Shown: positions 17,954-34,653, counted from the stretch's first letter. The stretch is DNA of 64,000 nt from Alphaproteobacteria bacterium (GCA_964291415.2 OZ219920.1:608001-672000); one strand, 5' to 3'. The notes: generated by a model from the letters alone, not told the origin. Made by a program: numbers and translations.

Positions 17954-18760
17954 ATGAAGCCCTCAAGTCATGGCTGCTCAAGAGACTCATCCGATCATGA
18001 CTCATGGGGTGAGTCACATTCAGGATTGTTCATTGCAAGCGTCGTTCATCCAGCAGAGGACTATGCAACATTGAAGCGCTTGCTTAGCAGGCTGATACGT
18101 CCCTTCGGTCTACGCGTCGTAGAAGCTTACCATACACAACCGGTGTACTTTCACGACTATCCCGGAGGCTACAAGCAGTATCGAGAAGTGCAAATCCGGC
18201 ACAACAGGCGTAAACTCGACCACGTATGGGCCGATGAATACACGCTGAAGGCGATCGAGAACAATCTCCGCACTCATGGCCTCGGACGCACCGGCATCTG
18301 TCACGGCGCACGCAATGGCTTCGAAGTCATGTGGTTCCGGGAACATCTGTCGGGAGACATAGTCGGCACTGATATGGCCGAGACTGCGTCCCAATTTCCT
18401 CACATGCATGTTTGGGATTTTCATGACGACAATCCCGAATGGATGAGAAAGTTTGACTTTGTTTACAGCAACTCACTCGATCAGGCCTTGAACCCGGCTC
18501 GCGCCCTGGATGCATGGGCCAGACAACTCACTCCGAGGGGACGCATGTACATTGAGCACACGATGGCTCATTCGGTGGAAGGTGCCGGCGAAATGGACCC
18601 TTTTGGAGCTCACCCGATGGTGATGCCCTATTTGTTTTTTGTCTGGGCCCGCGAGGGAGAACGATATCATCTGGATGCGATCTTGGAGATAGATGCCAAG
18701 CAGAACAACGGCATGCAGGTGTGGGTCTTCGTACTGGTTCTGGACTCGCAACCGGTGTAG
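17954..18760 (+). CDS. Putative class I SAM-dependent methyltransferase-like protein (true start probably near 18071)
   Basis: GICHGARNGFE and FDFVYSNSLDQ resemble SAM-binding motifs. Located in a glycan-modification cluster. Confidence 0.6.
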   Translation: MKPSSHGCSRDSSDHDSWGESHSGLFIASVVHPAEDYATLKRLLSRLIRPFGLRVVEAYHTQPVYFHDYPGGYKQYREVQIRHNRRKLDHVWADEYTLKAIENNLRTHGLGRTGICHGARNGFEVMWFREHLSGDIVGTDMAETASQFPHMHVWDFHDDNPEWMRKFDFVYSNSLDQALNPARALDAWARQLTPRGRMYIEHTMAHSVEGAGEMDPFGAHPMVMPYLFFVWAREGERYHLDAILEIDAKQNNGMQVWVFVLVLDSQPV

Positions 18761-18781
18761 AGAGCGATCTGGATCGGCGAA

Positions 18782-19510
18782 TTGCATGTTGCATATGTAA
18801 CTGATTCAGCCACAAGCAAGAGTTGTCATGTGATGCAGCGACTCAAGTATCGCCTCCTGCAGCACCTTCCCGGACGACATGGGTGCCGCTACTCCCGCAA
18901 GTACAAGTCCGTTCTGGCACTTGACGAGTTTGAAGCTGCCGTTGCCCGGTCTGCTGGGAAAACATGCATTGATCTTGGCGCCAATGTCGGTCACTACACG
19001 CGGAAGATGGCGATGGTGGCAAGGGAGGTAATCGCTTTCGAGCCTGATCCGTGGGCAGTTGAGCAACTTCGATACAATCTCGGTGCGTTTCCCAACGTTC
19101 GAGTCGAGGAAGCAGCGGTAAGCACTCGAAGTGGGGTAGGCGTACTTTGGCGCCGCGCCCAGTTTTCTGATGATCCGCGTGGACATTCAGCTTCTAGTTC
19201 GCTAGTGAAGAGAAAAATCCAACCGATCAGCCCCAATCAATCAGTGGTGGTTACTTTGGTAAATTTCGTCGAGTATCTCGATGGCCTGAATCCGAATTCG
19301 GATATCGGTGTGGTGAAGATGGACATTGAAGGAGAGGAGCTTGATATCCTGGATGCGTTGCTGTGCAGGCATGACCTTCTCACTCGAATGGACTCCATCT
19401 TTGTCGAGACACACGAACGACAAATCCCGGACCAGAAAGATCGTGTGTTGGAGTTGAAGACAAGAGTTACGAATGTATCTCGCCCACGGATTAATCTTGA
19501 TTGGCATTGA
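18782..19510 (+). CDS. FkbM family methyltransferase (start may be ~18833)
   Basis: IDLGANVG, IAFEPDP, KMDIEGEE, and FVETHE. Confidence 0.88.
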   Translation: MHVAYVTDSATSKSCHVMQRLKYRLLQHLPGRHGCRYSRKYKSVLALDEFEAAVARSAGKTCIDLGANVGHYTRKMAMVAREVIAFEPDPWAVEQLRYNLGAFPNVRVEEAAVSTRSGVGVLWRRAQFSDDPRGHSASSSLVKRKIQPISPNQSVVVTLVNFVEYLDGLNPNSDIGVVKMDIEGEELDILDALLCRHDLLTRMDSIFVETHERQIPDQKDRVLELKTRVTNVSRPRINLDWH

Positions 19511-19892
19511 TGAGTTATGACTGCTACGAAGCAACTGTGTACACAGGGGATTGCTATCTCGCAGCTGCGCAGTATCGAGCGTGGGACGTTGTCCCAGACC
19601 GGCTTGACGGTGGAACGCTGGCGGGCAGGTCGTGCATGGGACGCTTGTGATTTAGCTTCACTTCAGAGTTGCGGACGGAATGTGGTCCGGCACAAGAGTG
19701 GGGATGGCATGTCCATGACTGGGAGGAGGAAACCCTTGCTGTCTGGAAGCTTCCTGATCTTGGACTGTTCAAGGGATTTCTTTTGATCTTAAAACATGGA
19801 ACATCGAGAAGGCGAAGTTCCACAAATCTTGCGAGTGGGTTCTTGTCTTGGATACTTTGGTGCCGCCACAGCCGCAGTAGCTGGAACTAGCA

Positions 19893-21167
19893 ATGTCAGT
19901 TAAGTCGAGTCGACGCACCTTTGTTCCGACAGGCAGACAGTTTCGTTTCGAGTTGATGCGGCGACTCGAACCGGTGATGCCGAGTTTGTGCTTGTCAATT
20001 GGCTCTGTTACGCGGGAGGCGGACTTCAGTGCACTGGCCAAGTGGGGTCCTCTGACTGTTGTGGAAACACCGGAGGCGCCCCTGCCGGCCGAATGGATGC
20101 GGAAGTTCAGCGCCGAGTTTGAATTGGAACATCGGCGCGAGGGACACGTGTCGGCAACTTCTGAGCTCGAGTTGCAATTGGCAATGTTCGGGGACGTGTG
20201 GGTCTTCGGGCACACCGGGCAGATTGTGGATGCAGGAATGGGGCGGTCGATTACACCGGTTCACCGTGGTTCCACAATGCCGGGACTGTTGCGTGCTCGG
20301 CGGCTCGATGGAGTGGCGTTCAGTCTGTTTACCGGAGTGCCGGGAAAGAGGAGGAACTACTATCATTTCCTGATGGAGAGTATCCCCGAGAAGTTGGAGG
20401 CGCTTCGCTTGGCTGTAGAGGCTTTCGGTCACCTCACTCTGCTTCTGCCCACGTCCGACCATCCGCTCGATGTGGCACTGGTTTCAGAGGCACGGAGACT
20501 GTTCCCCGGGCTCCCAGTTCAACAGCTTCGAAAGTCCGAGAGACTTCGGTGCGAGTCCGTTGTGTTCCATCGCGTGCGACGATCGAGCATATTCCGGTCG
20601 CCGGCAAGCGGACGATTGCTTTCCCTTGCGGTGGAGGCGATGCGACATTCGTTCCAAACTCGGCCGAGAACAAAGGGGTCGATGGGCAATCTTGCGAGAC
20701 GACGGCTCTTCGTTTCTCGCGCCGATGCCAACAAGAGACGTTTGTTGAACGAAGACGATGCGCTTAGGCGCATTGAGCATCTCGGGTTCCAGCACGTGAT
20801 GCCGGGACGCCTTCCGGTTGAGGACCAGATTGCACTGTTCTCCGAAGCGCAGATTATCGCCGGACCGCATGGGGCGGGTCTGACCAATCTGATCTTCATG
20901 CCGAAGGGTGGAGCAGTGGTTGAGAACTTTCATCCAGGCTGGGTACAAGGCGCCTTTGCGTGGCTCTCGCACCTCACTGGACAGACTTACGGTCATGTTG
21001 TGGCGGACAAACTTGCGACAGATCTGGACTACCAGCTGTCGGGTGTGGGGCTCGATGCCTTTGAGCGAGAGGTCGAAGCGGCGCTTGAGAGAGTCACTGC
21101 GACCAAGGAATGGGCTTCTGTGCCTGACGGGGAACGCAGCTCCCTGCGGGCGAAAGAATCTCCATGA
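19893..21167 (+). CDS. Glycosyltransferase family 61 (DUF563) protein
   Basis: NYYHFLME, LFVSRADA..RRLLNE, and QIALFSEAQIIAGPHGAGLTNLIF. Confidence 0.88.
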   Translation: MSVKSSRRTFVPTGRQFRFELMRRLEPVMPSLCLSIGSVTREADFSALAKWGPLTVVETPEAPLPAEWMRKFSAEFELEHRREGHVSATSELELQLAMFGDVWVFGHTGQIVDAGMGRSITPVHRGSTMPGLLRARRLDGVAFSLFTGVPGKRRNYYHFLMESIPEKLEALRLAVEAFGHLTLLLPTSDHPLDVALVSEARRLFPGLPVQQLRKSERLRCESVVFHRVRRSSIFRSPASGRLLSLAVEAMRHSFQTRPRTKGSMGNLARRRLFVSRADANKRRLLNEDDALRRIEHLGFQHVMPGRLPVEDQIALFSEAQIIAGPHGAGLTNLIFMPKGGAVVENFHPGWVQGAFAWLSHLTGQTYGHVVADKLATDLDYQLSGVGLDAFEREVEAALERVTATKEWASVPDGERSSLRAKESP

Positions 21168-21979
21168 CCCGGCAATTCAAGGAACCGCCACTCCTCATTG
21201 AGTGGATCTATGCCGTCATGAACCAGACATACAGATGCGGTTATGTCGGTCGCAGGGTGTTCGGTCGCTTGCGTTGGATTGAACAGAAACTCCTGTTTGG
21301 CGAGCGCCGTTTCCTTGATGTGAGGAGGTACGGCATGCGATGGAGGGTTAGCCGATTCGGCAATGTCTCTGAATCGCGCATACTGCGCAGGCCAAGTTCT
21401 TTCGAAAAGGAGGAGGTTGACTTCGTTCTGGCGTTGGCGGTCGACAATTTTGTATTTGTTGATGTCGGTGCGAACTGCGGTTTCTGGTGCTTGAGGGTTG
21501 CGGAGAAGCTCGCCGGTGGCGGCACGGTCATCGCCATTGAACCACAGCCAGTCCTGTTGGAGCGGCTTTGTTACAATGCGATGATCAATGACGTTGAACT
21601 GGATGGCGTTCATGGATGTGTGATCGGAGATCGAGCCGGCCGCGCATTGTTGGAGGTGGACGATCACAACCTGGGAAGGAGTCGCGTCTCGGAGTCCGGC
21701 ACAAAGGACGTGGAAATGAGGACCTTGTTGGAGATCATTCAGGGACATGGACTGAGATGCATCGATGCTATCAAGGTGGATGTGGAGGGCTACGAGGATC
21801 GTGTCCTGAAGCCATTTCTTGACAGTGCTCCTGTGCACTTGTTGCCAAGAGTGATCGTGGCAGAGTGCTCATGGTCGGAAAACTGGAACTGCGATTGGAT
21901 GGCGATAGCCCGCCGAATGGGGTACAGGGAACTGAAGCGGACACGGAATCACAATGTCATATTGATGCGAGAGATGTGA
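21164..21979 (+). CDS. FkbM family methyltransferase
   Basis: VDVGANCG, IAIEPQP, and IKVDVEGYE. ATGA overlap with the GT61 gene. Confidence 0.9.
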   Translation: MTRQFKEPPLLIEWIYAVMNQTYRCGYVGRRVFGRLRWIEQKLLFGERRFLDVRRYGMRWRVSRFGNVSESRILRRPSSFEKEEVDFVLALAVDNFVFVDVGANCGFWCLRVAEKLAGGGTVIAIEPQPVLLERLCYNAMINDVELDGVHGCVIGDRAGRALLEVDDHNLGRSRVSESGTKDVEMRTLLEIIQGHGLRCIDAIKVDVEGYEDRVLKPFLDSAPVHLLPRVIVAECSWSENWNCDWMAIARRMGYRELKRTRNHNVILMREM

Positions 21980-22089
21980 CAGCGGTGGTGCCAGTAAACT
22001 TGAATATCACGATTGCGTAGACACAGTGGTGAGTGGATCAGTCAAGTGTCGAAGCCTCTCCTTAGCCTTCTCGAAGTGTAACCGGTCTT

Positions 22090-22866
22090 GTGAAGATCAC
22101 GGTTATCAGTCTGGATCGATCGAAGGATCGACAACGTGAAATCTCAGCGCATCTGGGAGCGTTGGGATTGGACTTTGACTTCCACCGCGCGGTTGATGGC
22201 GTGAAATTCCCGGATGAGTGTCGAGCATTGGTGGACTGGAATGGATCCCGTCGCAATGGCATCTATGTCCAGATGGGTTCCGTGGCCAACTGGATCAGCC
22301 AGTGCCAGGTGTTCCAAGACATGGTGGAGAATGGCCCTGAAGTCATGACTGTGCTGGAGGATGACGCCGTACCAACCGGGGAATTGGCGTCGGTTCTGGG
22401 ATTGCTTGAGACCATGACCGACCAGTTTGACATCGTCTTTCTTCACTCCGGTCCGGACCGGCCATTCATACCGGCACTTGATCTTCCAACTGGTCACCGG
22501 TTGGGGAGACTGCGGTGGTCGCACTTTGGAACGCAGGGTTACGTGATTACCAGGCGGGCAGCGGCGACTTTTCTGCAACACTATCCCCTGGCAAGGACCG
22601 GAATTGATCGTGCTCTCGCAAGCTATTGGAGACATGGTTTGAGGACGTTCTGCCTGCGTCCCGCGGTTGTTCACCATGCGGAGCACTTCCAGCATGAGAA
22701 TTCGCTGAAGTGGCAAGCGGCTGTCATCAGGTGGGAGGATCCCCTGTGGCGTCTGCGTCGTGGATGGTTCAGGACGAAAGAGGGTGTAGCCAAGAGGATC
22801 GCGTTTTCGCGGCTCATGATGGAGGCGCATGGCCCATTGGACGGTCTTCGCAAAGTGCTTTGGTGA
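22090..22866 (+). CDS. Glycosyltransferase family 25 protein
   Basis: VISLDRSKDR, FHRAVDG, VLEDDA, and GTQGYVIT. Confidence 0.87.
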   Translation: MKITVISLDRSKDRQREISAHLGALGLDFDFHRAVDGVKFPDECRALVDWNGSRRNGIYVQMGSVANWISQCQVFQDMVENGPEVMTVLEDDAVPTGELASVLGLLETMTDQFDIVFLHSGPDRPFIPALDLPTGHRLGRLRWSHFGTQGYVITRRAAATFLQHYPLARTGIDRALASYWRHGLRTFCLRPAVVHHAEHFQHENSLKWQAAVIRWEDPLWRLRRGWFRTKEGVAKRIAFSRLMMEAHGPLDGLRKVLW

Positions 22867-23067
22867 ATTGTCTTGTTGCTTGGCGTTCCTTGTTGCTTGG
22901 CGTTCTTGGCACCTATCAGTTCTTTCTGCGGTGCTACCGGGACTTGTGCGCGCATCCGTGGAGAGCTGAATACAGGAAGTGGCGCGCTCGCTGCTTCTTG
23001 GGCTGCCCCAGCTGGCGCGCCGGTGCAGGACCGCCACGTTGTCGGTCGCATTGTGGAATTCTCGGGC

Positions 23068-23908
23068 ATGACGCAGCCGATAAGCCTCGACGTCAACGGC
23101 AAGACGTACAGCCTCGAGGCGGGTCCGGACGAGCCCCTGGCGCTCGTCCTGCGCAACCGTCTCGGGTTGACGGGCGTCTAGGTGGGCTGCGGAGTTGAGC
23201 AGTGCGGCGCCTGCGCCGTGCTCGTCGATGGGGAGTCCACGCTGAGCTGTTTCCGGCCGGCGGCCGAATTCGCCGGACAGGAGATCGAGACGGTGGAGGG
23301 GCCGGGAGGCCCCGAGCGCCCCGGTCCGGTGCGCTAGGCGCTCATCGATGCCGGCGCGGTGCAGTGCGGATACTGCACGGTCGGACCGGTGGTCGCGATC
23401 ACGGGCCTGCTGCGCAGTCGGCCGTGGCCGGACCAAAAACGCGATCCGTGCCGCGCTGGTGCCGCATCTCTGCCGCTGCAGCGCCCAATCCAGGGTGCTG
23501 CGCGATGCGGGCACTGGCGGCTGAGAGGGACCGGTGACGGGCAACCCAAGTCTGGCGGCCTATTCGAATGTCGAGGACTGGATTGCCGTGCGCGCGGATG
23601 GCGGCGTGGAGGTCCGTTCGGGAAAGGTGGAGATCGGGCAGGGGATCGACACCGCGGTGGCGCTCATCGTGGCGGACGAACTGGGGGCGCCCGTCGATCG
23701 GGTTCTCATGACACCGGTCAGCATCGGTCTCGTGCCGGACGAGGGTTACACGGCAGGCAGCAGCTCGCTGGAACACTCGGGTCAGGCGCTGCGCCTTGAC
23801 GCCGTCACAGCACGGCGTGAGCTTCTCCGTCCGGCCTCGCGGCACCTGAGCGTCGATGCCGCGGATCCGAAGACCGGGACACGATGGTCCGTTTGCGCGG
23901 GCCCTTGA
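23068..23908 (+). pseudogene. Degraded partial duplicate of the nicAB-like operon (2Fe-2S subunit plus 5' end of the molybdopterin subunit)
   Basis: Colinear with 32032..~32870. In-frame TAG stops at 23179 and 23335, a later indel, and truncation near 23900. Confidence 0.9.
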
Positions 23909-25128: not shown

Positions 25129-25371
25129 ATGCTCCACCGAACCCTCACACCCGCAGACATTGGCCGCGTCGTCAGAGCCACCCGCAAGTCCGCCGGGCTG
25201 CGCCAGGACGAACTAGCCGGGGCGGCCGGTGTTGGCCTGCGCTTCCTCGTTGAGCTCGAACGCGGAAAGCCGACCGCACAAATCGGCAAGGCGCTTCAGG
25301 TCCTGCAGGCCCTCGGTTGCTCACTGGACATCGCGACACCGCCGGAGCCCGAGGACACGGAGAAGGGATGA
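25129..25371 (+). CDS. hipB: HipB-like XRE/y4mF HTH antitoxin
   Basis: LRQDELAGAAGVGLRFLVELERGKPTAQIGK. ATGA overlap with hipA. Confidence 0.9.
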   Translation: MLHRTLTPADIGRVVRATRKSAGLRQDELAGAAGVGLRFLVELERGKPTAQIGKALQVLQALGCSLDIATPPEPEDTEKG

Positions 25372-26628
25372 GGCGTGTTCTCCACGTCTGGTGGGACGGG
25401 AAACCTGTCGGCCAGCTGACTCAGGATCGCTACGGCGACCTCGGGTTCGCCTATTCCGAGAGTTGGCTTCGCGATGAGAGTGCCCAGCCTCTCTCCGCTT
25501 CCCTGCCCAAGCGCGAGGAGCCGTTTTCCCCGCCGCGAGTGCCGCCCCTTCTTTGCCGGCCTGCTGCCCGAGGACAGTCAGCGCAACGCCGCCGCCCAGG
25601 CGTTGGGCGTATCCAGCGGCAACGACTTTGCGCTTCTCGAAGGCCTTGGCGGCGACGTGGCAGGCGCACTTCAGCTCCTGCCGCCTGGAGAGCCTCCAGG
25701 AGACTCCGACTTCGACAGCCAGCCGTCTCCACTCGATGAGGCGGAGCTGATCGGCGTGCTTGACGCATTGCCGACACGCCCATTGCTTGCGGGCACAGAG
25801 GGGCTCAGGCTCTCACTCGCCGGCGCCCAGTCCAAGTTGCCGGTTGTTCTCGTGGATGGCGATATCGCTTTGCCCCTGTCCGGGCAACCGACCACTCACA
25901 TTCTGAAGCCGCCGGTCGCAAGGTTTCCCGGTACCACAGAGAATGAAGCCTTCGTGATGCGGCTCGCCGCAGACATCGGTCTTGATGTCGCACGGGTGGA
26001 ACCGCGCCTGATCGGCAACCGGCCGTTCCTCCTGGTTGAGAGGTATGACCGTTTCGTGGGTGCCGATCGCAGAACCCGGCGCATCCACCAGGAAGACTTC
26101 TGTCAAGCGCTCTCGGTGCCGCCGGAACTGAAGTATGCCGAAGAGGGAGGTCCGACGCTTGAAGACTGCTTTCGCCTTCTCCGCTCTCTCTCCATTCACC
26201 CGGCACTCGACATCCTGAAGCTGCTCGATGCGGTCATTTTCAATCTGATCGTCGGCAATGCCGACGCGCACGGAAAGAACTTCTCCATCCTGTACCGCAG
26301 GAGCGGGCCCCGTCTCGCGCCCCTCTACGATCTGCTGTCGACCGTGGCCTGGCCCGAGCTGTCGCCCAGGTTCGCCATGACGATCGGCAAGCGCGCGACG
26401 CTCGCGGAACTGGACGCCGAGGGCTGGGCGGCATTCGCTTCTGGCGCCGTCCTGGGGTTGCCTTTCGTGCGCCGTCGCGTTGCCGACATCAGCCAGACCA
26501 TCAAGACACGGGCGGAAAGGGTGGCATGCACACTGAAGTATCCGGGTCTGGATGCGGGGATTCTCTCGCGTATGGCCAAACGCATCGCAGACCGGGCGGA
26601 GCGGTGCGTCCATACGATCCGGGAGTGA
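25368..26628 (+). pseudogene. hipA: HipA Ser/Thr kinase toxin, +1 frameshift in a C4 run at 25528..25531
   Basis: N-terminal MRRVLHVWWDG...PLSASLP, then FFAGLLPE, LSLAGAQSK, HQEDFCQAL, GNADAHGKNFS and LAPLYD in the next frame. Confidence 0.88.
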
Positions 26629-27141
26629 CGTCGACTCCGATATGATGTTCTTGCGGCACCCTGACGGTATCAGAGTGCCGTGGCGTCCGGTCGAAAATCA
26701 CCCGACACACTGCCGAAGTGCGTGGTTCCGGGCCTGAGTGGAGTGCTTTGTCAGATGCTCATCCGCCGAGACTGAAAGAGCTTTCAAGCGGCGCGGGCGT
26801 GGTGCCCGAGCGTTCGAAAAGATGGAGTGGCGGAACAGCTTGTGCGACATTGGCGGCGTCTCTCGTCGATATCATCGTCACCGAGGCAAGCTCCTCGGCG
26901 GTCTTCTTGCAAGATCGCCAGGTGCGCTCTCCCCAAGATCTCGATCAATCTGAGCGAATCAACCCCGAATCGCCGCTGAAAGCCTACGCCCGCTCCGTCG
27001 TGAGCTTGGGCGGGTGAGAGTGTCGGTGAAGGAAGATTGTTCGGCTTGAAATGATGTTGACGGCACGGCCCCTGCCACTTGCGGTCGAACACTTGGGGCT
27101 CTATATGTTCTGTTATTGTTCCATCGTGCAAAGCCCGTCCA

Positions 27142-28089
27142 ATGTCGTTGCCGTCGCAGCCTCATGATACGCTCTTCCGGGCGATCGTCTCCGCACCGCC
27201 GCTTGCCGCAGCGCTGCTGGCAGACTATCTCCCGGGCGAACTCGGCGCCCTCCTTGACCCCGCCAAGCCGCCGGAGCACGTCGAGGGCACGTTCATCGAT
27301 GACGAGGGGGGCAGATGCCAGTGCGACGCGCTCTTCCGTGCGCGCCTTGCCACGGGCGAGCCTCTTCACATTTACGTGCTCGTCGAGCACAAGAGCCAGG
27401 TTGACGGGACGACGCCTCTGCAGTTGCTGGGCTACATGGTGAACATCTGGCGCCGGGATCTTGCGGACGGGACGGGAAACGTGAAGCCGATCGTTCCCCT
27501 GGTCTTCTACCACGGTCGGCAGGAATGGCGGGTGCCACTGTCGGTGGCGGCGATGATCGACGCGCCGGAGGTTCTGGCGCCGTATGTGCGGGACTTTGCC
27601 TACACGGTGCACGATCTGGGCCGGATTGCGCCGGAGCGGCTCAGCCGCGATCCGGAAGTGCGCTCGGCGCTGGTGGCGACGGCGACGGACATGGGCCCGG
27701 AGGATCTGGACCGGATCGGCGCCGCTCTGGTTGCCGACGGCGTCATGGAACGTGATATTCTGCACTACCTTGCCGAGGTGGCGAATCTGATGCCGGCGGC
27801 GATGAAGGCTTCGTTGAGGCGCACACAGCCGGAACGATGGGAGATGCTGATGGGCACGATGGCAGAAACGTGGCTTGAAGAGGGACGGACAGAGGGACGG
27901 ACCGAGGGTCGGACCGAGGGAAAGGCCGAGCTGCTCCTGCAATTGATGGAACGGCGTTTCGGGGAGGTGTCAGAGACGGTGCGATCGCGCGTCTCCGGAG
28001 CCTCGACGGACGAGCTCGAGGCCTGGGGTGACGCGTTGCTTGAGGCGGCGAGCCTCGACGAGGTCATTGCTCGCGCATCCCGGCACTGA
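27142..28089 (+). CDS. Rpn family recombination-promoting nuclease (Transposase_31, PD-(D/E)XK) with DUF4351-like C-terminus
   Basis: HDTLF, CDALF...YVLVEHKS, PLVFYHG, EGRTEG repeats, and LLLQLMERRFG...ELEAWGDALLEAASLDEV. Confidence 0.92.
   Translation: MSLPSQPHDTLFRAIVSAPPLAAALLADYLPGELGALLDPAKPPEHVEGTFIDDEGGRCQCDALFRARLATGEPLHIYVLVEHKSQVDGTTPLQLLGYMVNIWRRDLADGTGNVKPIVPLVFYHGRQEWRVPLSVAAMIDAPEVLAPYVRDFAYTVHDLGRIAPERLSRDPEVRSALVATATDMGPEDLDRIGAALVADGVMERDILHYLAEVANLMPAAMKASLRRTQPERWEMLMGTMAETWLEEGRTEGRTEGRTEGKAELLLQLMERRFGEVSETVRSRVSGASTDELEAWGDALLEAASLDEVIARASRH
27850..28089 (+). CDS. Putative internally initiated RpnS-like small protein (79 aa, in frame with rpn)
   Basis: GGGAG at 27839..27843 lies 6 nt before in-frame ATG 27850. 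The same RBS-ATG block is kept exactly in the next two cassettes. Confidence 0.6.
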   Translation: MGTMAETWLEEGRTEGRTEGRTEGKAELLLQLMERRFGEVSETVRSRVSGASTDELEAWGDALLEAASLDEVIARASRH

Positions 28090-28196
28090 CGACTCCCCGC
28101 TGTGTTCGTCCGACCTTGGCCGCGTCGCAGGATCTGATGCCGACGGCGATGGAGAGTTCGCTGAGGCGCACGCAGCCGGAACGATGGGAGATGCTG

Positions 28197-28412
28197 ATGG
28201 GCACGATGGCGGAAACATGGATTGAAGTGGGCCGAACCGAGGGAAAGGCAGATCTGCTCCTGCGGCAGATGAAGCTGCGCTTTGGGGAACTGCCGGGGGC
28301 GGTGCGCACACGCATTGCCGGCGCCTCGACGGAGGAGCTTGACGCCTGGGGAGCGGCATTGCTGGACGCGCCAACCATCGAAGACGTCATGACCTCCTGT
28401 TCCCGGCACTGA
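28197..28412 (+). CDS. Orphan Rpn C-terminal cassette 1 (DUF4351-like, 71 aa)
   Basis: MGTMAETWIEVGRTEGKADLLLRQMKLRFGELP...SRH. Has its own RBS. Upstream ~85 nt is homologous to rpn. Confidence 0.75.
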   Translation: MGTMAETWIEVGRTEGKADLLLRQMKLRFGELPGAVRTRIAGASTEELDAWGAALLDAPTIEDVMTSCSRH

Positions 28413-28519
28413 CGACTCCCTGCTGCGTTCGTCCGACCTTGGCCGCGTTGCAGGACCTGACGCCGACGGCGATGCAGAGTTCGCTGGGGCGCACGCAGCC
28501 GGAACGATGGGAGATGCTG

Positions 28520-28735
28520 ATGGGCACGATGGCGGAAACATGGATTGAAGAGGGTCTGACTCAGGGTCAGGTAAGGGTGCTGCTGCGACTGATGGAGCGG
28601 CGGTTCGAGGAGGTGCCGGAGGCGGTGCGTGCACGCGTCGTCAGGGCCTCGATGGACGAGCTCGATGCCTGGGGCGATGCGCTGGTGGACGCGGCGACCC
28701 TCGACGAGGTCATCGCTCGTGCATCGCGGCACTGA
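28520..28735 (+). CDS. Orphan Rpn C-terminal cassette 2 (DUF4351-like, 71 aa)
   Basis: MGTMAETWIEEGLTQGQVRVLLRLMERRFEEVP...ASRH. Starts 323 nt after cassette 1. Confidence 0.75.
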   Translation: MGTMAETWIEEGLTQGQVRVLLRLMERRFEEVPEAVRARVVRASMDELDAWGDALVDAATLDEVIARASRH

Positions 28736-29088
28736 CGGTACCGAACTGCGTTCGCCTGGCCATGGACAATGACCCGGACAAGCGGTGGCGGAGGGGTGGC
28801 GTCGTGCCGCCGGAAGGCACGATGGCACGGACGTGGTTTGAACAGGGTTTTGCCGAGGGTTTGGGCGAAGTGCGTGCCGAATGGGACAGGGAGCGTGCCT
28901 TCGGAATGGCGGAACTGCTGTCAATCCCAACCGAAAATTGCTCACTTTTCGGAATCGAAAATCTCTCACTGTGGCTGGGTGCAGCTGTGGGTAACTGGCC
29001 CGCCGCAGCGACCGCCACGAGTCTGGCGGCGGGGGGCCAGTTATCCACAGCGGGCGTCTCGCGCTGAAGTTGTTGTTGTTGGCGGCGA

Positions 29089-29880
29089 TCATGATCCGTC
29101 CTTCTTCCGGCGCCGCTCGGCGCCGGCCTGCAGCAGGTTCTGGTGATCGCGCATGCGATAGCTGTTCCCGCGGATGTTGACGATGTGGCAGTGATGGAGC
29201 AGGCGGTCGATCAGAGCTGCCGCCATGACCTCGTCGCCGAGCACGGCGCCCCACTCCTCGAAGCCCTTGTTGGAGGTGAGCACGGTCGAGGTCCTCTCGT
29301 GTCTGGCGTTGATGAGCTGGAAGAAGAGCACGGCGCCGTCCTGGCTGACGGGCAGGTAGCCGATCTCGTCGACGACGAGGAGAGGTGGATGGGTGAGCAC
29401 GCGCAGTCGGCGCGCCAGGTTGCCGGCGGCCCTGGCCTCGGTGAGGGAGTCGATGAGCCCTGTGAGCGTGCCGTAGTAGACGCGCCGTCCGGCCTCGGCC
29501 GCGGCAATCGCCAGGCTGATGGCCAAGTGAGTCTTCCCGACCCCTGGCGGGCCGAGCAGGATCACGTTCTCGCGGCGCTCGACGAAGCCGAGTTCGTGCA
29601 GGCTCTCGATCTGCTCGCGCTTGATGGAGGGCTGGAAGGCGAAGTCGAACTCCTCGAGGGTCTTGACCGCGGGCAGCCTGGAGGAGCGCATGGCGGTCTG
29701 CAGCCTGCGGTTGTTGCGCAGCACGATGTGGGCGTTCAGCAGCTGCTCGATGGCCTCGGCGGCTGAGATGGCGCCGCTGTCGGCCTGCGCCAGGATGCCG
29801 TCGACGGCCTCGAGGGCGCCGGGCATCTTGAGGTCGGCGAGCATGGCCCGCAGCCGGTCGCGGCGTGTCGGGGCCTTCAT
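29089..29880 (-). CDS. istB: IS21 helper ATPase IstB
   Basis: KTLEEFDFAFQP, GPPGVGKTHLA, VVDEIGY, LTSN, and IDRLLHH...GNSYR. Confidence 0.95.
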   Translation of the reverse strand: MKAPTRRDRLRAMLADLKMPGALEAVDGILAQADSGAISAAEAIEQLLNAHIVLRNNRRLQTAMRSSRLPAVKTLEEFDFAFQPSIKREQIESLHELGFVERRENVILLGPPGVGKTHLAISLAIAAAEAGRRVYYGTLTGLIDSLTEARAAGNLARRLRVLTHPPLLVVDEIGYLPVSQDGAVLFFQLINARHERTSTVLTSNKGFEEWGAVLGDEVMAAALIDRLLHHCHIVNIRGNSYRMRDHQNLLQAGAERRRKKDGS

Positions 29881-30895
29881 TGCAGTGCCTCGGCGTAGAC
29901 GCTGAGCGGCCGCCGCTCGACGTCCACGGCGGCCGGCAGGCGCCGCGGCGCCGGATCCGGGGTCTGGCGCAGACCGAGCCGTCGGTAGGGGCTGTTGGCC
30001 AGGGGCCGCAGCACCGCGCTTTCGTCGCGTTCGAAGCGGTCGACGGGGCGCTCCCCGGTCGTGCCGTGCCGACGCACGTTGGCCACCGCGTCGAGCCAGC
30101 CTGCGGCCTGCAGGTTGAGATCGTCGTCGTTGGCGAACTCCCGACCATAGAAGAAACTCTCCCGGATGTAGCGGATCGGGCGCTCGACCTTGCCCTTGGT
30201 CCGCGCCCTGTAGGGCCTGCACGAGCGGGGCAGGAAGCCCCAGTGCCTGGCGAAGCGCAGGAACTCCTCGTTGAGCACCAGGCCGCCGCCGGCGGCGCGG
30301 TCGTCGGACAGCACGACAGCGCGCATCTGGTCGAACAGCATCTCGTCGGGAACCCCGCCGAATGCCTCGAAGGCGCTCTCCAGACCCTCCATCAGGACCG
30401 GCATCGTCTGGCGGTGGTAGAAGCGCAACCACAAGAGCCGGGAGTAGCCGAGGACGACCACCAGCGCGTGACGCCGGCCCCAGGGAAGCCGGAAGGTGCC
30501 GAAGTCCACCTGGCCTTGGCGCCCTGCCGGCGTCTCGAACCGCACCGCCGGCTCGACCGGCTCACGCGGCCGAACCGTGCGCACGTACTGCCGCACGCGA
30601 TCATAGCCGCCCGGATAGCCGGCCGCGCGGACCTCGTCGAACAGACGCTTCGCCGACAGCTTCGGAAACTCCTCGAGACGTGTATCGATGATCGCCTTGT
30701 GTCCAGCTTGTGAGCCATCGGCGGGCGTGGCGAATATCCCTTCGGACCGGCCTCGAGGTCCCGGTCCAACTGACCCGTCTCGATCCAGTGGTGGATCGTG
30801 CGACGGTTCACCCCAAAACGCCGTGACAACTCCGCCTTCGAGACGCCCCGGTCCAGATAGTGCTTGAGCAACATCCTGGTCTCCCATCTGTACAT
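29877..30895 (-). pseudogene. istA: IS21 transposase IstA, frameshifted near 30701
   Basis: HTH N-terminus (MYRWETRMLLKHYL...KLD) in one frame. RFETPAGRQGQVDFG, LGYSR, FDQM and TKGKVER in another. Looks like a small deletion in the usual KLDPYK motif. Confidence 0.88.
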
Positions 30896-31253
30896 CCGCG
30901 CACCGCTTCCCGCTGCTGTTGGCTTCGCCAACAGCAGCGGTCCGGTGCACCTCAGTGACAACCCCAAAGTGAGAAACTTTGAGTGCGCATATGTGGGAGA
31001 TTTACGATCAGCACTAACAACTGCTCCTGCAATTGATGAAACGGCGCTTCGGGGAGGTGTCAGATACGGTGCGATCACGCGTCTCCGGGGCCTCGACGGA
31101 CGAGCTCGAAGCCTGGGGCGACGCGTTGCTTGAGGCGGCGACCCTCGACGAGGTCATGACTCGCGCATCCCGGCACTGACGACACCGAGCTGCGTTCGCC
31201 TGGCCACCGACAAGCGGTGGCGGAGGGGTGGCATCGCGCCGCCGGCAGGCACG

Positions 31254-31289
31254 ATGGCACGGACATGGTTTGAACAGGGGTTTGGTTGA
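31254..31289 (+). pseudogene. Truncated Rpn C-terminal cassette 4 (MARTWFEQGFG*)
   Basis: 31180..31286 repeats the leader and start of cassette 3 (28736..28851), then homology ends. Confidence 0.7.
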
Positions 31290-32031
31290 AGCGCCTGCCC
31301 GTCGCTTGACATAGGGCCCTTCACAACGTGGATGCAATCATGGCAACGACGGCCCCGGCCACGATGATCGTCCCGCTGCCGTCAGGAAGTGGGTGCAAAG
31401 GGACCTGGCGGCCTACGAGCCCTGTCGCAGTGACCCCCGAGAGGAATCCTCGATGAGCCGCCCGGTGGATTGCGACGTCCCGGGCTTCGATGCCGGAGCC
31501 CCGCGTGCACCTGTGTTGCTCACTTTGACCTGGCGGCCGTGTTCCGCTCGCCGAAGTCCGGGCCCTATGGCCCGGCATCCTCCTTGAGCATCCATGTTTC
31601 GGTGCAAGGTTTTGTGAGCGTGCGTGAAGATGTTTCCCTGGTCTGTCCCCATGCGGTGTGACGTTCCGACATCGCGGTGTCTACGCCCCGTGGCCAGGGA
31701 GACGTTGAGTTCGTGATCCCGGCAGCATGAGGGGGTGTTCGGAATATGAAGTCAGGATCATGTCCGCGCTCCGTGGTCAGTGTGCACAGGAAGCCGGTTC
31801 GGCATGGAGATCAGTCGACATCACGGTTTCCAAGACGTTCTTCATGCATGCCGATTCTCGTTCAGGTGCCACCGGGAACTCGTGCGTTGGTCAGCGGCGA
31901 GAGGAATTCGGACACCCCGGTCTCAGGCTGGATACGGGGAGTTCGGCGGGCTCGCATGGTCCAGGACTGCTTCGGTTGGCGCGCCGGTGGAGGGCCGCTA
32001 CGTTGTCGGCCGCATCGTGGAATTCTAAAGC

Positions 32032-32502
32032 ATGACGCAGCCGATCAGCCTCGACGTCAACGGCACGACCTGCAGCCTCGAGGTGGGTGCGGACGAACCC
32101 CTGGCGCTCGTCCTTCGCAACCGGCTCGGGCTCACGGGCGTCAAGGTTGGCTGCGGTCTCGAGCAGTGCGGCGCCTGCGCCGTGCTCGTCGACGGGGAGT
32201 CCGTGCTGAGCTGTGTCGCGCCCGCGGCCGGGTTCGCCGGAAGAAAGATCGAGACGGTGGAGGGGCTGGGGAGCCCCGAGCGTCCCGGTCCGGTGCAGCA
32301 GGCGCTCATCGACGCCGGGGCGGCGCAGTGCGGCTACTGCACGCCGGGACTGGTGGTCGCGATCACGGGCCTGCTGCGAAGGGAGCCCCGGCCGGACGAG
32401 AACGCGATCCGTGTCGCGCTCGTGCCGCATCTCTGCCGTTGCGGTGCCCATCCCAGGGTCCTGCGCGCGGTGCGGGCGCTGGCGGCGGAGACGGCACGGT
32501 GA
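32032..32502 (+). CDS. [2Fe-2S] small subunit of a molybdenum hydroxylase (nicotinate dehydrogenase NicA-like)
   Basis: GCGLEQCGACAVL, QCGYCTPG, and LCRCGAH. Confidence 0.88.
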   Translation: MTQPISLDVNGTTCSLEVGADEPLALVLRNRLGLTGVKVGCGLEQCGACAVLVDGESVLSCVAPAAGFAGRKIETVEGLGSPERPGPVQQALIDAGAAQCGYCTPGLVVAITGLLRREPRPDENAIRVALVPHLCRCGAHPRVLRAVRALAAETAR

Positions 32503-34653
32503 CGGTCAACCCGAGTCTCGCGGCCCATCCGAATGTCGAGGACTGGATTGCCGTGCGTGCGGATGGCGGTGTGGAGGTGCGCACGGGAAAGGTGGAGATC
32601 GGGCAGGGAATCGACACTGCGGTGGCGCTCATCGTGGCGGACGAACTGGGGGTGCCCTTCGGCCGGGTTCTCATGACACCGGTCACCACCGGCCTCGCGC
32701 CGGACGAAGGCTACACGGCGGGCAGCAGTTCGCTGGAGCATTCGGGCGAGGCACTGCGACACGCCGCCGCCACCCTTCGCAGCGAACTTCTCGGGAGGGC
32801 CTCGCGGCGCCTGGACATAGAGGCCGCGGATCTCGAGACGGGGGACGGAATGGTGCGTTCGCGCGCGACCAACCGGACGATCGCCTTCGCGGAACTCGTT
32901 CACGACGCGCCCGTCACGGGCCCCGTCGATCTCCGGGCGCCGACCCGTCGAGATGCCCGGCTGAGGCCGGGAGATTCAGAAGAGTTCGAGCCACTCCACA
33001 TGCGCAGGCGCGTGACCGGCACTCTCAGGTTTGTCCATGATCTTTGCCCGGAGGGTACGCTGCATGCCCGCATCGTTCGCCCGCCCCACTACCACGCCGT
33101 GCTTGCAGAACTGCCAGATGACATCCAGACGGTGCTCGGCGATGCGCGCCTCGTCCGCGACGGAAGCTTCCTTGCGGTAGCCCACGACGACGAGCACCTG
33201 GCCATCCAGGGCGCGGAACGGCTGTCGGCGGTTGCCCGGTGGTGCGCGGTGCGCGACCTCGACGAAGGGCCGATCGGGCAGCGGCTCCTTGAGAACCGCT
33301 GCGAGAGCTTTGCCGTGCAGGACGGCGTGGCGCGCAACGAACCGGTCGACACGCCGCCCTTGAGCGGACCGGGAACGATTCGGGCGACTTATGAGCGGCC
33401 GTACCAGATGCATGGGTCCCTGGCTCCGTCGGCGGCACTCGCCGTTTTCGCCGACGACCGCTTCACCGTGTGGACGCATTCCCAGGGTCCCTATCCGCTG
33501 CGCAGCGCCCTGGCCGAGGCGCTGGACTGCGATCCCGCCTCGATCACGGTGACGCACGCACCCGGGTCCGGATGCTACGGACACAACGGCGCAGACGACG
33601 CCGCGCTCGAGGCGGCGTTCATCGCCCGCGCGATTCCCGGCCGTCCCGTGCTCCTGAAGTGGTCGCGCGACGATGAACACGCATGGGAGCCCTACGGGTC
33701 CGCGATGCGGATCGAACTTTGCTGCCCGCCTTGGCCACGACGGAGCGGTGGAGGCCTGGTCGCACGAGACCTACAGCGATACCCACCTGATGCGCGCCTG
33801 GCCGGACCCTGCCCGGCCGCAGGCCGGCAAGTTCCTGGCCCCGCGCTATCGCGCAAACCCTCTGCCGGCGCCCGCGCCGACCGCGAGTCTCGGTGCCGGC
33901 GGCGGAATCCACCGCAATGCCACGCCGGCTTATGCCTTTCCGCACATGCGAATCGTCAAGCACCTCGTCCACGGACTGCCGCTCAGGGTCTCCGCTCTTC
34001 GCACCCTGGGAGCTTTTGCCAATGTCTTTGCCGCTGAATCGTTCATGGACGAGCTCGCGCACGAAACGGCCTCCGATCCGGTCTCCTACCGGCGCCGCCA
34101 CCTCGAGGACAGACGCTCCATCGACGTGCTTGACGCCGCTGCGCGGCGCTTCGGCTGGTCCGCTGGTCCGCCGGCGGAGAAGCCTGACGGCATCGGACGC
34201 GGCATGGCGCTGGCGCGTTACAGGAACACCAAGAGCTACTGTGCGGTCGCGGTCGAGGTGCGGGTGAACGACGACGCGTCGGTGGAGCTTCAACGCGCGG
34301 TCATCGCCGCGGATTCCGGCGAGATCGTCCATGCGGACGGACTTGCCGCGCAACTCGAAGGGGGATTCGTGCAGGCTGCCAGCTGGACCCTTCTCGAAGC
34401 GGTGACCTGGGACCGCGACGGCATCACCAGCCGGGACTGGCAGAGCTACCCGATCCTGCGCTTCGACAACATCCCCGAGATCGACACCGTGCTGCTGGAC
34501 CGGCCGGGCGAACCGTATCTGGGCGCCGGCGAAGCCGCCTGCGGTCCGACGGGAGCGGCGATCGCGAACGCGGTCTTCGACGCCACCGGCATCCGGGCGC
34601 GGCGCCTGCCGCTGACGCCGCAGTCGCTCCGCCAGGCCGCCTCGACAGGTTGA
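32499..34653 (+). pseudogene. Molybdopterin-binding large subunit (NicB-like), +1 frameshift near 33720
   Basis: GKVEIGQG, PDEGYTAGS, YQMHGS and GSGCYGHNGADDAA, then LRTLGAFANVFAAESFMDELA, QLEGG and GAGE in the next frame. Confidence 0.85.

Follow-up and report, generated by a model that had tools for sequence, protein, structure and literature searches.

The question raised by the locus described here is why the gene of an Rpn nuclease should be followed directly by a row of further copies of only its C-terminal domain. The locus occupies positions 27142-31289 of a 64,000-nucleotide (nt) stretch of DNA from an Alphaproteobacteria bacterium (GCA_964291415.2, OZ219920.1:608001-672000), the whole of which we term the window and from whose first letter all coordinates are counted. 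Rpn proteins are YhgA-like recombination-promoting nucleases that act as phage-defence toxins with an intragenic antitoxin. In this recently recognized type of toxin-antitoxin system the antitoxin gene lies inside the toxin gene, so that the pair must co-evolve, and three old, diverged and still constrained copies whose helix-1 lengths are not those of the resident protein constitute a natural experiment: if the copies are expressed, specificity would be broader than one toxin and one antitoxin, and if they recombine into rpn, a cassette mechanism would alter the self-recognition module of a defence protein. We find that the locus is a multi-copy, old and diverged form of the known arrangement of rpn with a stand-alone rpnSs gene. 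As to function, our leading but tentative reading is that the copies, which we call cassettes, may be expressed paralogs of the antitoxin RpnS that pair with other length variants of the toxin RpnL and could also serve as recombination donors.

The known arrangement is that of Escherichia coli, for which we draw on the main text of Zhong et al. (2023, PNAS, PMC10400941). There, all E. coli rpn genes contain an internal transcription start, and the RpnS made from the internal start neutralizes RpnL, as an earlier note on this DNA had correctly stated. RpnL is neutralized by its own RpnS only, with 4-amino-acid (aa) repeats setting RpnL/RpnS specificity, and one extra 4-aa repeat in one partner abolishes neutralization. 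The same text describes stand-alone DUF4351/rpnS genes, among them the single downstream copies rpnESs (= ypaA) and rpnCSs, the RpnESs protein having been detected, as well as the loss of the downstream copy through deletion or through fusion with the rpn N-terminal region, and rpn gene arrays formed by tandem duplication. The earlier note's statement that no such array had been described therefore went too far, in that a single downstream copy is published; as regards at least two consecutive stand-alone units (hereafter solos), none was found in print, the supplements of PMC10400941 lying outside this coverage. The parts of a commentary (PMC10400984) covered here add nothing further on arrays.

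The window rpn combines a Transposase_31 N-domain (Pfam PF04754, E 8.1e-38, residues 6-177, profile positions 1-170 of 203) with a DUF4351 C-domain (E 2.2e-11, residues 255-307), and the NCBIfam RpnA and Rpn family profiles match it with scores under their cut-offs. Its translation contains CDALF ... VLVEHKS, which we take to be the candidate for the catalytic D...E-x-K/Q. A profile search of the 4.44-megabase genome (5 contigs) recovered one Transposase_31 match and four DUF4351 matches, every one at this locus; the window rpn is the sole rpn in the genome. The C-domain contains three GRTE repeats, the number of which differs among 15 homologs in a protein alignment, and the candidate intragenic RpnS has 76 aa counted from a start of the form MAxTW. 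A sequence profile search of PDB yielded best matches at chance level, none below E 0.6, and none of the PADLOC models matched the window Rpn or the cassettes.

Pfam searches and repeat finders bear out the earlier note's description of an intact rpn followed by C-terminal copies: behind the gene lie two complete 323-nt units (u1, u2), a third (u3) that is split by an insertion sequence (IS) of the IS21 family, and a head-only stub (u4), u0 being the corresponding unit within rpn (Table 1). A repeat search recovered a 300-nt unit in four copies, with spacings of 323, 323 and 2444 nt and 81, 64 and 67% identity to the first copy, and Tandem Repeats Finder (TRF) reported a 323-nt period repeated 2.6 times at 27904-28737, with 78% matches and 0 indels. 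The u1 frame has 98 codons from a TTG at 28116, or 68 aa from the ATG at 28206, the u2 product likewise has 68 aa from its MAxTW start, and u3 without the IS and one copy of the target duplication is an open 83-codon frame from the ATG at 28822. DUF4351 is detected by Pfam in the open reading frames of u1 (28116-28409, E 8e-12) and u2 (28439-28732, E 3.3e-9) and in the u3 tail (31033-31176, E 2.2e-7); the 32-aa u3 head (28822-28918) by itself has no Pfam match. All three units have the layout of a stand-alone RpnSs gene, in that they lie directly downstream on the same strand, are separated by 26-nt spacers and match DUF4351 above the cut-off. The heads of u1 and u2 are homologous to the last 27 rpn codons ahead of the presumed internal start; those of u3 and u4 are about 90% alike, and 23 of 26 positions are shared by the spacers sp2 and sp3. 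All four complete units (rpn, u1, u2 and u3) end in CGGCACTGACG, and the bodies of u1 and u2, as had also been noticed earlier, diverge and yet are open and equal in length, these units being free of indels across 323 nt; u3 is open once the IS is removed. The unit in rpn is 347 nt long, against 323 nt in the cassettes, because rpn has two extra GRTE repeats (24 nt). Counted with its repeats, from the conserved W to the invariant RF, helix 1 has 27 residues in rpn, 19 in u1, 19 in u2 and 34 in u3.

Table 1. Features of the rpn locus, in window coordinates
Feature	Position	Strand	Remarks
rpn (RpnL)	27142-28089	+	Transposase_31 N-domain (PD-(D/E)XK) and DUF4351 C-domain
Presumed intragenic rpnS	candidate ATG 27850 (MGTMAETW) or 27859 (MAETW) to rpn stop 28089	+	start context and analogy with E. 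coli
38-nt identical block	rpn 27826-27863; u1 28173-28210; u2 28496-28533	+	holds GGGAG and candidate ATGs
Dodecamer (GRTE) repeats	27879-27921	+	TRF: 12-nt period, 3.6 copies; helix 1 of the C-domain
Cassette u1	28090-28412	+	26-nt spacer, head, DUF4351 body
Cassette u2	28413-28735	+	layout and length equal to u1
Cassette u3, 5' part	28736-28918	+	spacer, divergent 'type B' head, GGAAGG-N4-ATG (28822), degenerate 4-aa repeats
IS21-family element	28919-31019 (2101 bp)	-	istA 29877-30950, istB 29089-29883
Cassette u3, 3' part	31020-31179	+	last 155 nt share 93.5% identity with the rpn tail
Stub u4	31180-31289	+	spacer and type B head, ATG 31254; stop after 11 codons; array end

The units share the region around the presumed internal start. 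The 39-nt block quoted in the earlier note occurs three times in the window, exactly at 28172 and 28495 and with one mismatch at 27825, against 0 occurrences expected from 100 shuffles. The context of the MAxTW start is cgatgggagatgctgatgggcacgATG identically in rpn, u1 and u2, ggaaggcacgATG in u3 and ggcaggcacgATG in u4; in the latter two the sequence farther upstream is unrelated to that of rpn, u1 and u2, despite which GGAAGG/GGCAGG-N4-ATG is retained. Across the rpn genes of four species in the genus the 38-nt block hardly varies, even at third codon positions, which fits a nucleotide-level role such as an internal start. It is a family-wide feature, not one peculiar to the array, and also provides a ready site for homologous exchange. 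No terminator-like sites were found inside the array and no sigma-70-like promoter in 26600-31700, and Rfam and tRNA scans of the array region were empty. The RNA run X5 was set aside as evidence of transcription, given that its single contig at the rpn C-terminus (27836-28037) derives from a relative and attests presence in an RNA library only; 28139-28822 is without cover in this run.

Over the last 155 nt the tails of u0 and u1 are 71% identical, those of u0 and u2 82% and those of u1 and u2 72%, and the synonymous divergence (dS) of the bodies is 0.49-0.64; the window cassette bodies are old. The ratio of nonsynonymous to synonymous divergence (dN/dS) of the bodies, a check proposed in the earlier note, is below 1 throughout (bootstrap ranges in brackets): 0.45 (0.23-0.91) for u0-u1, 0.30 (0.13-0.60) for u0-u2, and 0.49 (0.23-0.96) for u1-u2, a comparison that does not involve rpn. 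In the 27 codons upstream of the internal start it is about 1.0-1.3, with few changes. We further scored the columns conserved in 11 homolog rows from outside the window: of those that are invariant and those conserved at 80% or more, respectively, u1 retains 8/8 and 21/23, u2 6/8 and 20/23, the u3 tail 7/7 and 12/15, and rpn itself 8/8 and 20/23. The cassette bodies are under purifying selection, and they hold the family-conserved residues about as well as rpn does.

The units are also mosaics. The u1 and u2 cassettes differ at 7 positions in the first 138 nt (spacer and head) and at 56 in the remaining 185, a breakpoint with a maximum chi-square of 32 that was reached by 0 of 2000 permutations; their heads are 95% identical and their bodies 72%, and their synonymous divergence is 0.05 in the head and 0.64 in the body. 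The u3 tail is much closer to the rpn tail than are those of u1 and u2 (71-82%), yet its head is of the other type. Comparison with rpn genes of other species showed that: 1) in the u1 and u2 heads identity is 90-91% to the G019 rpn, against 83-85% to the resident rpn; 2) the u1 tail is nearest to the rpn of G002, at 78% against 72% to the resident gene; 3) the u2 tail is 82% identical to the resident rpn, tied with G010 rpnA at 82%. Judged by identities over short segments, the tails of u3 and u2 may cluster with their own upstream RpnS and that of u1 probably does not.

Independent reads support the array. In run X1 contigs (Logan) cover 27945-28168, 28198-28491 and 28525-28844 with 0, 2 and 1 differences and bridge the u0/u1, u1/u2 and u2/u3 junctions, so that the array is not an assembly artefact; X2 and X3 contigs, each with 1-11 differences, contain portions of u2, u3, the stub and the flank. 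Parts of the array are thus present in runs of three studies, sponge metagenomes where labelled, at about 97-99% identity, and the array persists across strains. Beside this, an in-frame 12-nt insertion (4 aa) at 27671, between the nuclease domain and the C-domain of rpn, is seen in all three DNA runs, with depths of 21 of 21 in X1, 3.74 of 3.74 in X3 and 4.58 of 43.9 in X2; 12-nt indel polymorphism hence exists beyond the known repeat region too.

The IS21-family element within u3 encodes IstA (NF033546, E 7.8e-73, 245.6 bits against a cut-off of 160) and IstB (PF01695, IstB_IS21, E 4.2e-82), has the ends TGTCAAT...CTAACA, is flanked by a 5-bp target duplication ACTGC (28914-28918 and 31020-31024) and is present in a single full copy in the genome. 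Its insertion is polymorphic: two contigs of run X1 carry the empty-site joint 28912->31019, which skips 2106 nt with 7 letters fitting both sides, the IS-free joint having a depth of 17.1 against 17.7 and 13.7 in the flanking contigs, and a contig of X2 also bridges the empty site but is without 12 nt at 28854, that is, with one 4-aa repeat fewer in u3. The left end of the element includes a 70-nt stretch (about 28983-29053) with a 26-nt inverted repeat (28984-29009 / 29026-29051, 88% complementary), which is repeated at 92-94% identity at four other genome places on four contigs, outside full IS copies. One copy at 80% and a few shorter fragments are also present, and the stretch has the look of a small palindromic repeat element.

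To see how far such loci extend, DUF4351 was searched in relatives. Among 41 of these it was found in 9 of 23 species genomes within the genus and in 0 of 18 from other genera. Within the class it was present in 1 of 400 other genomes, as a full-length rpn array, and within the phylum in 60 of 400 other genomes, several of them containing dozens. The phylum survey draws on the 150 of 624 DUF4351 matches listed, on full match lists for five DUF4351-rich genomes (83 matches) and on 150 of the 292 matches of five more, so that arrays may have been missed. A search with a 7-row alignment recovered 12 related loci, all in metagenome-assembled genomes labelled Alphaproteobacteria or 'bacterium', and those matchable by coordinates to genome-survey matches lie in the window's genus; the same alignment recovered nothing from Joint Genome Institute (JGI) metagenomes. 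With u1 as query, tblastn found no match in 50,697 phage records and matched 19 of 72,556 plasmid records, with no tandem places. Synteny of the rpn locus with other species was not seen, the gene itself being the sole matching part. Five genomes of another class of the phylum (G459, G469, G481, G488 and G533) have between 33 and 81 DUF4351 matches apiece, so that Rpn-type genes and solo cassettes are very greatly expanded in them.

A single solo follows an rpn in two genomes of the genus, G010 and G013, and G010 also carries tandem full-length and N-truncated rpn copies. Outside the genus, 18 regions were fetched, which were picked for two matches within about 1.3 kb and are not a random sample: 1) In seven of these one solo adjoins a long frame that has DUF4351 at its end (L029-L032, L040, L041, L045). 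A Transposase_31-like N-domain is found in that same frame in five of the seven (L029-L032, L041); in L040 it is matched in a separate 300-aa frame, with the gene's own C-unit reduced to an 89-aa frame, and in L045 the long DUF4351 frame has no N-domain match. 2) Three, all from another class of the phylum, contain two or more consecutive solos: contig G435:C93 (2771 bp) has three units with 4, 3 and 2 repeats and a head-only stub, G469:C114 has a 314-aa DUF4351 frame, with no Transposase_31 match at E <= 0.01, and two solos, and G469:C285 has two solos at the contig end. 3) In the remaining eight the units are about 1 kb apart. Arrays are hence recurrent. In 6 of 6 aligned rpn/solo pairs the duplicated unit starts upstream of the internal start, ribosome-binding site (RBS) included, with bodies that are 93-100% identical, and in five of seven pairs, that of G429 included, the repeat regions of solo and rpn differ by a multiple of 12 nt. 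In five of the 18 regions a cassette lies no more than about 115 nt from the end; the frequency of arrays is probably underestimated, because short-read assemblies tend to break at arrays.

What the window cassettes do has to be judged against these observations. The units probably arose by unequal recombination in the start-codon block, directly behind it and in the dodecamer repeats, with gene conversion reshuffling them afterwards. If they are expressed RpnS paralogs, as we tentatively prefer, each unit would probably be read as part of the rpn mRNA or expressed from its own copy of the internal promoter, with translation beginning at the start that it has kept, giving DUF4351 proteins of 68-83 aa. 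The identity of the 38-nt start block in rpn, u1 and u2, though the bodies differ by 18-29%, counts in favour of this reading, as do the start signals of u3 and u4, the open frames, the constraint on the bodies, an array interior free of terminator-like sites, the recurrence of arrays, their persistence across strains and the RpnESs precedent. With helix-1 lengths of 19, 19 and 34 against the resident 27, the cassettes are unlikely to be extra cognate antitoxin; rather, they would pair with length-matched RpnL forms, derived from repeat slippage, recombination or mobile DNA, and would be available as donors replacing the rpn C-terminus. To the expressed antitoxin library envisaged in the earlier note, the start context, dN/dS below 1 and the retention of family residues lend indirect support, but none of the cassettes matches the resident protein in helix-1 length. 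Several points weigh against our preference: 1) By analogy with E. coli, where one added repeat leads to loss of neutralization, the helix-1 mismatch implies that the cassettes may do nothing to the sole RpnL present. 2) The main text of Zhong et al. assigns the single RpnSs no tested function (PMC10400941). 3) The cassettes are known here from DNA alone. 4) One assembly tolerates an IS21 within u3. 5) Open frames are weak evidence, because in such GC-rich DNA simulated neutral copies remain open in 28-52% of trials. 6) The dN/dS values below 1 could be a legacy of earlier full-length rpn alleles, given that the u1 and u2 heads and the u1 tail have a closer match in the rpn of another species than in the resident gene. 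7) A second locus in G013 (L013/L027) consists of a frameshifted rpn, its C-unit, a partial head and a distal unit, and is a decayed array.

Next in order stands the doubtful but not negligible alternative that the array is a functionless by-product of frequent tandem duplication at rpn loci, perhaps promoted by the nuclease or by slippage in the dodecamers, with copies that linger and then decay. Duplication at rpn loci is common, as the full-length or N-truncated arrays in G010, G005 and G297 attest, the authors of the E. coli study suggest that RpnL may itself start the recombination that yields downstream copies (main text of PMC10400941), and many one-solo loci are, by their near-identity to their rpn, young; the window cassettes, however, are old by their body dS and yet without frameshift or stop. 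The decayed array behind the frameshifted rpn in G013, the stub at the end of the window array and the IS21 that u3 carries in this assembly all speak for it, but in X1 the IS-free u3 contig has a depth like that of its flanks, and the array is held in runs of three studies. Open frames, as said, decide little in GC-rich DNA; against that, the family-conserved residues are kept as well as in rpn, dN/dS is 0.30-0.49, the u1-u2 comparison included, and the start block is untouched.

We consider it unlikely that the cassettes are mainly a DNA-level reservoir, in which exchange at the head block or the repeats replaces the rpn C-terminus and confers a new specificity, for example in escape from a phage factor that targets or mimics RpnS. 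The mosaic structure is clear and indirectly supports the swappable C-termini proposed in the earlier note: u1 and u2 change abruptly from near-identical heads to divergent bodies, the u3 tail resembles that of rpn beside a head of the other type, the u1 and u2 heads resemble another species' rpn more closely than the resident rpn, and helix 1 of the cassettes has lengths not found in the resident gene. Mosaicism, however, is expected in any tandem repeat, selected for or not, and the conserved block, which is present family-wide, needs no explanation beyond the internal start. No rpn-cassette chimera and no joint corresponding to a deletion of 323, 347, 646 or 670 nt was present among the 15 of 19 joints listed, a check that has no power as contigs break at the repeated block; a joint 27398->28194 in X2 was dismissed, having just 21 letters on one side. 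Moreover, swapping through deletion would use up the array, and a role in DNA only needs neither start signals nor purifying selection, unless the bodies must stay functional for later. The expressed paralogs that we prefer and such a reservoir are not mutually exclusive, and the two can be combined into a working cassette system, itself rather improbable in our estimate: recombination at the start block would swap the rpn C-terminus so that oligomerization domain and antitoxin change together and faster than by repeat slippage, for instance in evading phage mimics of RpnS or phage triggers, with the expressed spares checking intermediate or incoming RpnL. The further suggestion of the earlier note, that the cassettes cover other resident rpn alleles, is inapplicable, as the genome has one rpn.

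The surroundings of the array offer some observations of their own. Upstream, at 25317-26628, a gene for a HipA-type kinase is split over two frames, with Couple_hipA positions 1-57 in the frame 25317-25739 and the remainder together with HipA_C in the frame 25474-26628; it is a frameshifted pseudogene or else reflects an error in long-read assembly. Fragments of molybdopterin-oxidoreductase genes flank the hipA-rpn segment at 23534-23905 (MoCoBD_2 positions 50-148) and at 31746-34653 (a 2Fe-2S subunit and pieces of MoCoBD_1 and MoCoBD_2 in overlapping frames), and the segment may be inserted into, or rearranged within, a molybdopterin-oxidoreductase cluster. The region 18000-23000 is lower in G+C (0.52-0.59, compared with about 0.64) and contains genes for FkbM-type methyltransferases and for family 61 and family 25 glycosyltransferases; it looks like a variable surface-polysaccharide island adjoining a gene for a RecD2-type helicase. 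About 4 kb beyond the array, 35177-35514 matches, at 76-77% and on the opposite strand, the DNA just downstream of the rpn genes of G016 and G012 (L010 2783-3135; L011 2831-3153), the only non-rpn similarity among the related loci.

Among known systems the closest are the E. coli rpnE-ypaA and rpnC-rpnCSs pairs, which likewise have a stand-alone C-unit directly downstream on the same strand; in K-12 ypaA begins 13 nt past the end of rpnE. According to the main text of PMC10400941 the E. coli copy also originates by local duplication, varies in its 4-aa repeats and can fuse back to rpn. The window differs in having three full copies and a stub where E. coli has one downstream copy, and in that its u1 and u2 tails are only 71-82% identical to the resident C-terminus and mosaic. 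Further, the E. coli copy clusters with its own upstream RpnS, whereas the u1 tail is nearer to another species' rpn, and E. coli RpnS, used as a control, is unmatched by PF14261, whereas the window cassettes match DUF4351. A ypaA-like unit is present in 5421 of 5426 complete E. coli genomes, with 1-4 per genome and a median of 2, and those with 3-4 ypaA-like places might hold multi-cassette versions. The arrays of G435:C93, G469:C114 and G469:C285 resemble that of the window in having 2-3 DUF4351 units in succession, at a period of about 310-350 nt and with differing repeat number, and G435:C93, like the window array, ends in a head-only stub. Their units, in contrast, are near-identical apart from the repeats and hence young, whereas those of the window are old, and two of the three lie at contig ends with the upstream gene outside the contig. 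Tandem direct duplication at rpn loci is also what the full-length rpn arrays display (main text of PMC10400941; G005, G010, G297 and G488), but these repeat whole genes of about 1-1.6 kb, whereas in the window the repeated stretch begins only about 80 nt before the internal start and ends 26 nt behind the stop.

In their layout the window units also recall cassettes of a quite different kind. The orphan cassettes of contact-dependent inhibition (CDI) and Rhs systems and the silent pilS cassettes combine a conserved 5' homology block with a divergent body, in tandem downstream of the expressed gene, and the window units similarly share a conserved 5' block followed by a divergent body. They differ from the polymorphic-toxin and pilS systems in that no switching was seen. 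The orphan cassettes of polymorphic toxins are generally without a start of their own and consist of a toxin tip and its cognate immunity gene. The window units, unlike these, keep an RBS and an ATG and encode the antitoxin/oligomerization module (DUF4351) only.

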